From a bacterium (lineage in GTDB: Bacteria; Omnitrophota; Gorgyraeia; Velamenicoccales; JABMQK01), in assembly GCA_013203265.1 (NCBI GenBank), contig JABMQK010000209.1:1-25009 (forward strand): a DNA stretch of 25,009 nucleotides. The letters run 5' to 3'. Positions 2,272 through 24,501 of the stretch are shown here, piece by piece. The notes under the pieces were generated by a model. The model did not search any database. It was not told the origin of the DNA and saw only the letters and a program-made list of their open reading frames with translations. The position numbers were made by a program, and so were the translations under genes. The first letter of the stretch is position 1. Each line of letters begins with the position of its first letter.

Positions 2272-2304
2272 CTTTTTATTTTCGTAAAAGCTTTTGATAC
2301 ATTC

Positions 2305-2507
2305 GGCGGCGCCAAACCTTACCATTTATGGTGGGGACAAAAGCGCCGCCTCAGTATTCCTTCGACATGCTCAGGATGCTTCGAAGGATGCTGAGCGAAG
2401 CCGAAGCACAACCCTGAGCCCGTTCGACTTTGCTCAGGGCTCAGTCCTGAGCTTAGTCGAAGGACTGAGCAAACTCTGGTTTAGCTCGGGGTGCGTCGAA
2501 AGGGTTG
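2305..2507. repeat. Nested array of REP-like palindromes (TTCGAC-nnn-GCTCAGG ... CCTGAGC-nnn-GTCGAAGG family) preceded by a GC-rich hairpin
   Basis: GGCGGCGC (2305-2312) / GCGCCGCC (2343-2350) encloses CCTTACCAT-tt-ATGGTGGGG. Arms CCTTCGACATGCTCAGG (2359-2375), TGCTGAGCGAAGCCGAAGCA (2389-2408), CCGTTCGACTTTGCTCAGG (2420-2438), TCCTGAGCTTAGTCGAAGGA (2445-2464); CAACCCT (2409-2415) / AGGGTTG (2501-2507). Confidence 0.85.
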
Positions 2508-2584
2508 ATTTTGTATTAATGGTTTTGATTATTTAAGAATTCAAAGAGGATATAAAAAAGAATTGTAAGTTAACGGAGAAGAAG

Positions 2585-3613
2585 ATGAAGATAGCTGTTG
2601 ATGCTATGGGCGGTGATCATGCTCCAAAGGTTGTAGTTCAAGGAGCGGTAGAGGCTGTGAAGAACTATGATTTAGATATTTTGCTTGTTGGGAATTCCAA
2701 GCTAATAGAAAAAGAAATTCGTAAAATTAGAAATTGTCCCAAAGACAGGATTAAAATTGTCCATACCGACGAAGTTATCGAAATGGATGATTTACCAACA
2801 GCGAGTGTGCGAAGGAAGAAAAACTCTTCGATTTCCTTAGGAATAAATTTACTAAAGTCAAAAGAAGCTGATGCATTTGTTAGTGCAGGCAATACTGGTG
2901 CGGTTGTTTGTGCAGGGACGTTATATTTAGGTTTGCTGCCTGGGATTGAGCGTCCGGGAATTGCTATATTGTTCCCTACACTAAAGGGTATTTCATTAGT
3001 CGTTGATGTAGGGGCGAATATCGACCCTAAACCACTGCATCTTTTACAATATGCAATAATGGCAGATGCATATTATAGGCATGTGTTGGGACATAAAGAT
3101 AAACCAAGCCTTGGTCTATTAAATGTTGGCGAAGAGGTTACAAAGGGAACTGAATTTGTAAAAGAAACACATAGATTGCTTAGTCAGAGTTCACTAAATT
3201 TTGTTGGCAATGTTGAGGGGAAAGAAATATTTTCTGGAAATTGCCATATAATCGTTTGTGATGGATATGTGGGTAATGTAGCCCTTAAAGTTACAGAAAG
3301 TGTAGCAGAGATGCTCACTGAATTTCTACGAAGAGCGATACTAAGAGGTTTCTGGGGTAAGTTAGGGACATTGTTTTTAATTGGGAATTTAAGACGTTTC
3401 AAAAAAGATATAGATTATTCTGAATATGGAGGAGCGCCACTTTTAGGTGTTAATGGAGTAGTTATTATTGCCCACGGTCGTTCTTCCAGTAATGCTATAA
3501 AGAATGCAATTAGAGCTGCTAAGCTAGAGGTTGATAATGGAGTAAATCAGAAAATTATCGATGTAGTATCAATTGTACAAAAGAAAGTTACCTCACAAGA
3601 TACTCTCCTTTAA
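2585..3613 (+). CDS. plsX: Phosphate acyltransferase PlsX
   Basis: KIAVDAMGGDHAP, VSAGNTGA, RPGIA, DVGAN, GLLNVGEE, GNVEG, CDGYVGNVALK, GGAPLLGV, HGRS. Confidence 0.98.
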   Translation: MKIAVDAMGGDHAPKVVVQGAVEAVKNYDLDILLVGNSKLIEKEIRKIRNCPKDRIKIVHTDEVIEMDDLPTASVRRKKNSSISLGINLLKSKEADAFVSAGNTGAVVCAGTLYLGLLPGIERPGIAILFPTLKGISLVVDVGANIDPKPLHLLQYAIMADAYYRHVLGHKDKPSLGLLNVGEEVTKGTEFVKETHRLLSQSSLNFVGNVEGKEIFSGNCHIIVCDGYVGNVALKVTESVAEMLTEFLRRAILRGFWGKLGTLFLIGNLRRFKKDIDYSEYGGAPLLGVNGVVIIAHGRSSSNAIKNAIRAAKLEVDNGVNQKIIDVVSIVQKKVTSQDTLL

Positions 3614-24303: not shown

Positions 24304-24501
24304 CGAACATAAGTTTGTTAGCTGAATTTGACCCCCCACCACTTTTTATTAGACATCGTTCATTAAAAGTGGTGGGGGGTTTAATTCGCACAGTGACTTA
24401 TGTCTTTCGACCACGCTCAGGACATAATCCTGAGTTTATCGAAGGATTATGTTTACTCACTTTGTTCGTTCCATAAGTCACGTGCTCATTAAAAGGGGGA
24501 G
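24272..24501. mobile_element. Composite three-stem palindromic element (MITE/REP-like), copy 2
   Basis: Stem 1 CAAACTTATG (24285-24294) / CATAAGTTTG (24308-24317); stem 2 GAATTTGACCCCCCACCACTTTT (24324-24346) / AAAAGTGGTGGGGGGTTTAATTC (24365-24387); stem 3 GTGACTTATG (24393-24402) / CATAAGTCAC (24472-24481). Same skeleton as 1788-2032. Confidence 0.7.
24404..24446. repeat. REP-like hairpin (TTCGAC...GCTCAGG family) nested in stem 3 of the composite element
   Basis: CTTTCGACCACGCTCAGG-acataa-TCCTGAGTTTATCGAAGGA, flanked on both sides by TTATGT (24398-24403 and 24447-24452). Confidence 0.85.

Follow-up and report, generated by a model that had tools for sequence, protein, structure and literature searches.

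A small palindromic insertion element of Omnitrophota and other bacteria with the reverse complement of its duplicated target in the hairpin loop

The window analysed in this study is a stretch of 25,009 nucleotides (nt) of contig JABMQK010000209.1, which belongs to a bacterium of the phylum Omnitrophota (assembly GCA_013203265.1; 1.02 Mb in 210 contigs, 36% G+C, 71% complete). It contains two short hairpins with the same pair of inverted arms, one in the spacer between rpmF and plsX (site 1), and one in the spacer between dapF and dapA (site 2). Both are copies of a palindromic insertion element that is small (~45-50 nt) and non-autonomous, and is called a doublet here. The core of the loop between the two arms is the reverse complement of a short sequence that is directly repeated on both sides of the element. 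Comparison of many copies confirmed that this agreement is far beyond chance. The layout at both sites (Table 1) is exactly as described in an earlier note on this DNA: a target 6-mer, the left arm, the inverted 6-mer in the loop, the right arm, and the 6-mer again. The arm pattern was matched twice in the window, compared with no match in 100 dinucleotide-preserving shuffles. Site 1 by itself is weak evidence for the rule, because its 6-mer coincides with the CTCAGG/CCTGAG stem motif of the element.

Comparison of filled and empty sites supported that the window hairpins are insertions, and that the target is single at the empty sites. Both doublets are nested in larger repeats with further copies in the same genome. 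The site 1 host and contig C190 share 97.7% identity over 128 nt up to position 2419, and the similarity resumes at 2465. C190 is without exactly 51 nt (2420-2470; the placement of the gap is ambiguous by 6 nt), and has only one CTGAGC. At site 2, the doublet is located within the loop of the second hairpin of a leader-type repeat, which has many copies in the same genome; the copies on C197, C148, C184, and C36 all read GAC-TTATGT-TTAC, with one TTATGT. Empty forms of site 1 were also found in other metagenomes. A contig of run X5 jumps from 2413 to 2465 (6 letters are ambiguous), and in a contig of run X4 the CTGAGC is directly followed by the downstream flank. A more distant case is the genome G420 (Vicinamibacterales, Acidobacteriota), in which a composite repeat has at least 31 empty copies (…AAG-CGAC-GGC…). 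Of its 12 inspected doublet copies, 11 are at that point of the composite, with the loop GTCGT/ACGAC and CGA(C) on both sides. In genome G003, one doublet is nested inside the CTCAGG of another, and the outer arm is restored when this doublet and one TCAG are excised. The check on empty alleles thus agreed with the earlier claim in the source genome, in the other metagenomes, and in G420: the empty forms carry one target copy, not two. An assembly or amplification artefact was ruled out, since many independent assemblies contain the family, one of them deposited as a whole chromosome.

The rule was evaluated on 118 distinct full doublets, 101 of which were kept as independent contexts with unrelated outer flanks. 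A perfect triple, in which the left core, the right core, and the reverse complement of the loop core are identical, was found in 57 of the 101 copies. The rule is broadly followed by 76, or by about 80 if register shifts of one base are counted. Agreement between loop and flank was 0.77 in register, and fell to 0.17-0.36 when shifted by 1-4 nt. For an earlier set of 88 copies, the agreement was 0.69, compared with 0.38 ± 0.02 after permutation of the loops among elements with the same loop length. In 13 copies of identical geometry, the two helices (left flank with loop, and loop with right flank) were 87.5% paired, all five variable pairs changed on both sides, and none of 500 shuffles reached the observed score. 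By position, the left flank matches the reverse-complemented loop except for its first base, and the right flank except for its last base. Decay is distributed across the three copies, with 6 odd positions on the left, 9 on the right, and 5 in the loop. The loop therefore differs among copies in step with the flanking duplication, whose reverse complement it is, as had been proposed from the two window sites, and the controls do not reproduce this. Full-text literature searches, including searches for the arm motifs, gave no description of a loop that mirrors its target, in a coverage that left out most subscription papers.

Comparison of the copies also refined the anatomy of the element. The full form is a-c-[Y CCT TCGA N3-7 CTC AGG R]-c'-[Y CCT GAG N3-7 TCGA AGG R]-c-b (Y, pyrimidine; R, purine), where c is 3-6 nt long, and c' is the reverse complement of c. 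The general scheme is a-c-[p L p']-c'-[q' R q]-c-b, in which L and R are the arms, and the direct repeat c equals the loop length minus 2. The end bases of the loop pair with the base just outside each arm, namely p (Y) with p' (R), and q' (Y) with q (R). The p and q bases are outside the duplicated target in most copies, and also in the nested case of G003. A polarity test, which looked for exactly one outer base joining the duplication, gave no excess. The core always starts with a pyrimidine and ends with a purine (57/57), and the loop of 5-8 nt has the form R-Y-N(1-4)-R-Y in 88 of the 101 copies. The duplicated 6-mer of the earlier note is therefore partly revised: the triplication is real, but the core is usually the loop length minus 2 (3-6 nt), and the loop ends pair outside the arms.

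Each of the two inverted arms is ~20 nt long, and can close on itself via Y-CCT...AGG-R around a 12-nt TCGA-N3-7-CTC segment. The c-arm-c' and c'-arm-c units are alternative small hairpins of 7-10 base pairs, which compete with the long arm-to-arm hairpin. In DNA folding, both small hairpins clearly outperformed shuffles, and at site 1 the minimum-energy fold is the one with two hairpins. In a circular view the element reads X-Y-X'-Y', with TCGA..CTC as X, AGG-loop-CCT as Y, and X' and Y' approximately reverse-complementary to X and Y. In its integrated form, the opening is always in Y' at c. An arm followed by an inverted arm was the grammar in 120 of 133 arm clusters, and R-then-L junctions are rare outside tandem arrays.

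Table 1. Coordinates of the two doublets of the window and of their host repeats (position 1 is the first letter of the window).
Feature	Position	Strand	Sequence or structure	Remark
Site 1, left target copy	2414-2419		CTGAGC (core CTGAG + C)	single in C190 and in contigs of other metagenomes
Site 1, left arm	2420-2438		CCGTTCGA-CTTTG-CTCAGG	conserved blocks common to >100 copies in other genomes
Site 1, loop	2439-2445		GCTCAGT	2439-2444 (GCTCAG) is the reverse complement of the target
Site 1, right arm	2446-2463 + A2464		CCTGAG-CTTAG-TCGAAGG + A	A2464 pairs with T2445
Site 1, right target copy	2465-2470		CTGAGC	
Host of site 1	2290-2530	+	~185-nt composite repeat	between rpmF (2041-2271) and plsX (2585-3613)
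Site 2, left target copy	24398-24403		TTATGT	single in C197, C148, C184, C36
Site 2, left arm	24404-24421		CTTTCGA-CCACG-CTCAGG	
Site 2, loop	24422-24428		ACATAAT	24422-24427 (ACATAA) is the reverse complement of TTATGT
Site 2, right arm	24429-24445 + A24446		CCTGAG-TTTA-TCGAAGG + A	
Site 2, right target copy	24447-24452		TTATGT	49-nt insert missing from the other host-repeat copies
Host of site 2	24315-24500	+	repeated leader-type element, two hairpins + ribosome-binding site	between dapF and dapA

The host repeats have features of their own. The host of site 1 also has arm-like modules at 2359-2400, 5' of the doublet. In this segment, arm-type blocks are interleaved as CCTTCGA..GCTCAGG..TTCGAAGG..GCTGAGC, in the order A-B-A'-B', and the segment belongs to the 185-nt composite that is found on C190 too. 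The leader-type repeat of site 2 also occurs at ~1788-2032 of the window and on C148, C184, C197, C36, C95, C49, and other contigs, directly 5' of many genes. It consists of a GACCCCCCACCAC...GTGGTGGGGGG hairpin, a second hairpin (CACAGTGACTTATG...CATAAGTCACGTG), and then CTCATTAAAAGGAGG with the start codon; it looks like a portable promoter/5'-untranslated-region module. In other Omnitrophota genomes, related leader copies also have doublets at this TTATGT (loci L092, L098), and a second hot spot in such copies is GTTCGT (L022, L057, L122). In the source genome, a further small palindromic family (CTTCCGCCAAA..TTGGCGGA / CAGCCGAAGGCTGATCCGTCCTTCGGCGGAC) often adjoins doublets (C35:2160-2200, C166:2897-2940, C109:790-830, C100:6205-6260, C210:680-730). 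On C100 and C210, it fills the position of the leader repeat that is taken by the doublet in the window.

The element might be an ordinary MITE (miniature inverted-repeat transposable element). For a MITE moved by a DDE transposase, the flanks would be a normal target-site duplication, and the match of the loop would be a coincidence or a target preference. Terminal inverted repeats (CCTTCGA...TCGAAGG) and flanking direct repeats are indeed present; however, the length of the duplication is 3, 4, 5, or 6 nt within one family, tracking the loop length instead of being fixed. The match between loop and flank also survives the permutation, register, and covariation controls, and no transposase gene recurs near the 120 loci listed. 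A fixed-stagger DDE transposase cannot give either a duplication of 3-6 nt that tracks the loop or an inverted copy, and this explanation is considered highly improbable. The statement of the earlier note that plain cut-and-paste transposition is insufficient was therefore borne out.

The remaining explanations fall into two classes, in which the loop is either copied from the target or inherited. Both use pairing between the loop and the target. Copying of the loop from the target during insertion, by fold-back priming, is preferred over an inherited guide, and is held at a little below even probability. The target would be opened to leave a short 3' overhang c on each strand, and an arm would be joined to, or copied onto, each 3' end. 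The AGG-R end of the arm would then fold onto its own Y-CCT, and prime the copying of c into c'. The complementary tails c' and c would anneal, and each end would copy the arm of the other, resulting in c-arm-c'-arm-c. When the strand logic of this model was worked through, it gave the observed order on both strands. Somewhat more tentatively, the mobile unit may be a single self-closing arm of ~20 nt and not the doublet, with arms on both 3' ends of a staggered opening, fold-back copying, and rejoining via the complementary tails. Such a single-arm route might run largely on host ligase and polymerase, in many bacterial phyla.

Several properties of the arms and loops fit fold-back copying. 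The interiors of the two arms (3-7 nt, from TCGA to CTCAGG) lack complementarity to each other, are the same in only 2 of the 101 copies, and occur in near-random combinations. This fits two independently acquired arms, and not a snap-back copy of one. In most copies, and in the nested case of G003, the bases beside the arms are outside the duplicated core yet pair with the loop ends, which fits self-closing arms. Also in line with the model are the insertion at a target that is single in the empty sites, the validity of the rule across phyla, the tracking of the loop length by the duplication, and the good folding of both small hairpins. The 101 contexts contain 57 different loops of differing lengths, and all seven doublets of the source genome have different loops. 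Such an own loop for each independent insertion is expected if each insertion takes the loop from its own target. Within a genome, loops are no more alike than between genomes (p = 0.5; a weak comparison, with identical loops of one genome collapsed beforehand). In sum, the model accounts for the non-complementary interiors, the p and q bases borne by the arms, the duplication, and the own loop of each insertion. It is favoured over a guide because the loops are diverse and form no lineages within genomes, and because the three copies decay evenly.

The interpretation of the earlier note was thus supported in part. The inverted copy is not explained by cut-and-paste, but the template switching or snap-back synthesis that the note suggested would be one of two routes to it, since an inherited loop that selects a complementary target gives the same anatomy. 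Snap-back or template-switch insertions are known from bacterial quasi-palindrome correction, eukaryotic end joining by polymerase theta, and rolling-hairpin replication. In these events, the sequence that adjoins a hairpin-forming 3' end is copied in inverted orientation, and joined via microhomology. Unlike the present element, they are sporadic repair scars without a conserved cargo that crosses phyla.

Other observations weigh against the fold-back model of loop copying. None of its steps has been observed, and neither an enzyme nor a free-arm intermediate is known. The expected one-ended products, which are single arms between inverted repeats, are rare. Among the 101 copies, no doublet has two T..A-type interiors, and such doublets are rare overall (one was found outside this set); the arms are thus not fully independent draws. 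Some loops (TTAA, TCG, CTGAG, and TCGAA types) recur in unrelated-looking contexts and genomes; therefore, either a target preference is needed, or inheritance of the loop is favoured. Recurring cores often resemble pieces of the arms (TCG/CGA in 20 of the 57 perfect copies; also CTGAG, TCAG, TTAA, and TCGAA), and several insertions are located within or next to arm-like sequence. At any length between 5 and 8 nt, the loop has a G+C count of ~3, which fits any pairing model, including a guide. In about 10% of the copies, the flanks are inverted and not direct repeats, and the loop is unrelated to them.

These last copies bear on a further explanation, in which the element inserts by some ordinary route, and the sequences on the two sides of each arm become complementary later. 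This would occur either by intramolecular template switching at the quasi-palindromic arms (palindrome extension or correction), or by selection for a structure of the DNA or RNA. If whichever hairpin forms grows outward, two kinds of observed copies would follow: the minority whose flanks extend the long palindrome (L025, L052, L112, L123, L127, L134), and single arms between inverted repeats. True single arms are rare, but one Dehalococcoidia genome (L052) has single arms between inverted repeats of 7-8 nt. However, the comparison of filled and empty sites showed a clean insertion with exactly one extra direct c. The downstream host sequence is unchanged, so the right-hand c was added and not converted. 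The two window sites look like young insertions, and they already show the full c/c'/c. The invariant stems and variable loops are the opposite of a selected RNA fold, and there was no match to an Rfam family. A cis pseudoknot, in which a flank at the hairpin foot pairs with the loop while the arms are paired, would be sterically implausible and was rejected on geometry. Overall, an origin of the complementarity after insertion appears improbable.

An inherited loop could instead act as a guide or splint. The element would travel as single-stranded DNA, and its loop would pair with a short target, aligning the ends that are held beside the loop by the arm mini-stems. The right-hand c would either come with the element, similar to the peel-and-paste of IS200/IS605 elements 3' of a recognised site, or be copied from the loop. 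This explanation is considered possible, at a probability somewhat below that of fold-back copying. IS608 provides a precedent: it chooses its target by pairing of an internal guide, and a changed guide retargets it (PMC5934647, PMC3201880). Like IS608 and the palindrome-associated transposable elements (PATEs), the doublet is defined by hairpins, and has a short internal sequence complementary to the insertion point and to the other end of the element. Those elements insert next to a recognised short motif and not within it, which would explain a 'duplication' of variable length, and the anatomy of the doublet is compatible with such insertion. The guides of IS608 are 5' of the hairpin feet, are fixed within a family (TTAC/TCAA), and pair partly in a non-canonical manner. 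In the doublets, by contrast, it is the hairpin loop that is complementary; its pairing is canonical, it differs between copies, and no transposase could be linked to the element. A two-fold behaviour of 'clover versus long hairpin' has also been proposed for REPINs (PMC3116915). The two-small-hairpin fold of the doublet places its 5' and 3' ends beside the loop, so that a target paired with the loop would be lined up for joining.

The guide is also kept alive by its fit to the loop data, because some cores recur, with identical loops across contexts and genomes, and because the loop G+C count is constant, as if a certain pairing energy were required. Tandem arrays (c-arm-c'-arm)n exist (L177, L206), as rolling-circle or circular forms would give. 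On the other hand, the loop diversity is very high, with nearly an own loop for each independent copy and no relatedness within genomes. A right-hand c borne by the element would need co-ordinated changes of loop and c to alter the specificity. Most sets of copies with the same loop (G044, G117, G169, G420, G422) are composite repeats of larger size with the doublet as a passenger, and these bursts were therefore rejected as evidence of inherited loops.

A guide, like the HUH nuclease proposed in the earlier note, directs attention to Y1 enzymes. Y1_Tnp (PF01797) was found in 43 of 47 element-bearing Omnitrophota genomes, which would suit a guide, and in 280 of 354 element-free ones (hand count). 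In total, 323 of the 401 genomes of the phylum (81%) contain it. Since Y1 genes are near-ubiquitous in the phylum, their presence says nothing either way. Y1 was not found in two element-bearing genomes, G418 (15 matches, 94% complete) and G419, and no arm was present within ~1.5 kb of ~20 inspected Y1 gene loci. With Y1 genes occurring regardless of the element and never flanked by arms, the proposed HUH link was not upheld, and the guide loses this support. An all-against-all protein comparison over 8 kb around the 120 loci listed gave no recurrent neighbour family and no recurrent transposase. A type IB topoisomerase was considered from the YCCTT at both ends, and was rejected: PF01028 was found in none of five element-rich genomes, and a Deinococcus control was positive.

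The source genome has Y1_Tnp genes on C187 and C156. The gene at C187:4770-5550 (L172) encodes a Y1/HUH protein of 225 amino acids (IS200/RAYT-like), and is bracketed by 16-nt inverted repeats (GGGGACGGTTCTATTT / AAATAGAACCGTCCCC). It is a REPtron-like arrangement of a different repeat family. The Y1_Tnp genes of Omnitrophota (G001-G418) are mostly solitary open reading frames of 130-330 amino acids. In a survey of one strain per species, Y1_Tnp was present in ~43% of species (PMC6006769).

The family is widely distributed. The half-pattern was present in 7 of 41 relatives, and in 47 of the 401 Omnitrophota genomes; a reversed-pattern control gave no matches. The number of matches per Omnitrophota genome ranges from 0 to 24, with none in 354 genomes, and seven copies are in the source genome. 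A prokaryote-wide scan of one genome per species (596 Gb) gave at least 120 loci. The matches listed span Omnitrophota, Acidobacteriota, Chloroflexota (Anaerolineae, Dehalococcoidia), Planctomycetota/Brocadiia, and Nitrospirota, and also Binatia, the candidate phyla radiation (CPR; Saccharibacteria, Parcubacteria), Leucothrix, and others. About 90 half-pattern matches are expected by chance in 596 Gb; about half of the listed loci match on both strands (26 fixed bases), and are real doublets. Among viruses, 48 contigs were matched, but 41 matches are one unrelated coding sequence, and only two are true doublets; carriage by phages was rejected on this basis. The viral loci (L248-L293) comprise ~40 IMG/VR contigs, mostly of one sample, with the identical coding stretch CTCAGGCACTACCTGAGTCTGTTCGAAGG, a chance match to the half-pattern and a trap for pattern-based surveys.

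The Acidobacteriota genomes G422 (L304-L323) and G420 (L324-L335) have composite repeats of >150 nt in tens of copies. Between near-identical composites, the interiors of the doublet arms vary more than the flanks. One hairpin of these composites begins with CCGA (TCCGAGGGGCTTCGCCCCTCGGA), and recalls the 'CnGA-foot' structures that have been linked to class 3 Y1 proteins (PMC6006769). A search of Rfam 15 with gathering and E-value thresholds, using the window and 16 loci of other phyla, gave only sub-threshold noise of microRNA-like hairpins.

The doublets were compared with several known systems. Doublets of repetitive extragenic palindromic (REP) sequences and REPINs are mobilised by Y1-HUH enzymes of the RAYT (TnpA-REP) type (PMC3116915, PMC3733652, PMC8266576). 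Like REPINs, the present elements are short, non-coding, intergenic inverted units that form one long or two small hairpins, nest in mosaics of repeats, and occur in tandem arrays. By the REP/REPIN criteria of PMC3733652, the two-fold inverted unit is present, but the tag, the copy number, and the arm-flanked RAYT gene are not. No GTAG or CGTC tag was seen in more than 100 copies, and the arms begin with Y-CCTTCGA and end with TCGAAGG-R. There are a handful of independent copies per genome and not hundreds. No Y1 gene is flanked by arms, and the same arm sequence is found across many phyla. A variable duplication with an inverted copy in the loop is unreported in PMC3733652 and PMC3116915. The label 'REP doublet', as used in the earlier note, was therefore dropped.

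Two other comparisons were made. The SDR4-6 repeats of Nostoc (Elhai et al. 2008, Genome Res 18:1484), as cited in PMC5861425, are mobile-looking repeats of 21-27 nt for which that citation gives no known enzyme. As described there, they are likewise very small, and nest in one another and in hairpins; their sequence is different and their range is cyanobacterial. The attC sites of integrons and the attP(+) site of CTX phage also have two paired boxes, an unpaired central spacer, and a variable terminal loop in a long hairpin. However, the doublets lack R'' (RYYYAAC) and R' (GTTRRRY), and the foot is CCTTCGA/TCGAAGG in all copies. The joint is at the foot of the hairpin and not inside a box, and there is no cassette or phage. 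The element is placed among the small palindromic non-autonomous elements, with a new and well-supported insertion signature, and is not an attC site, a DDE MITE, or an Rfam family.

Few components of bacterial genomes are as poorly understood as small palindromic repeats, and the rule described here is not predicted by existing models of transposition: the loop core mirrors the duplication, has the form Y..R, and has a length that tracks the loop. The same 13-nt arm blocks are found from Omnitrophota to Acidobacteriota, Chloroflexota, Planctomycetota, and CPR without a linked gene. For annotators, the rule makes it possible to recognise the inserts and to rebuild the sequence before insertion, including leaders and operon spacers such as rpmF-plsX and dapF-dapA. 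Should the target be chosen by the loop, the doublet would be a naturally occurring insertion element that is guided by DNA, can be freely reprogrammed, and is much smaller than IS608. Writing of the loop from the target would instead be a new insertion chemistry; and the single-arm route, if true, would represent an undescribed mode of DNA insertion, in which an inverted target copy becomes part of the element.
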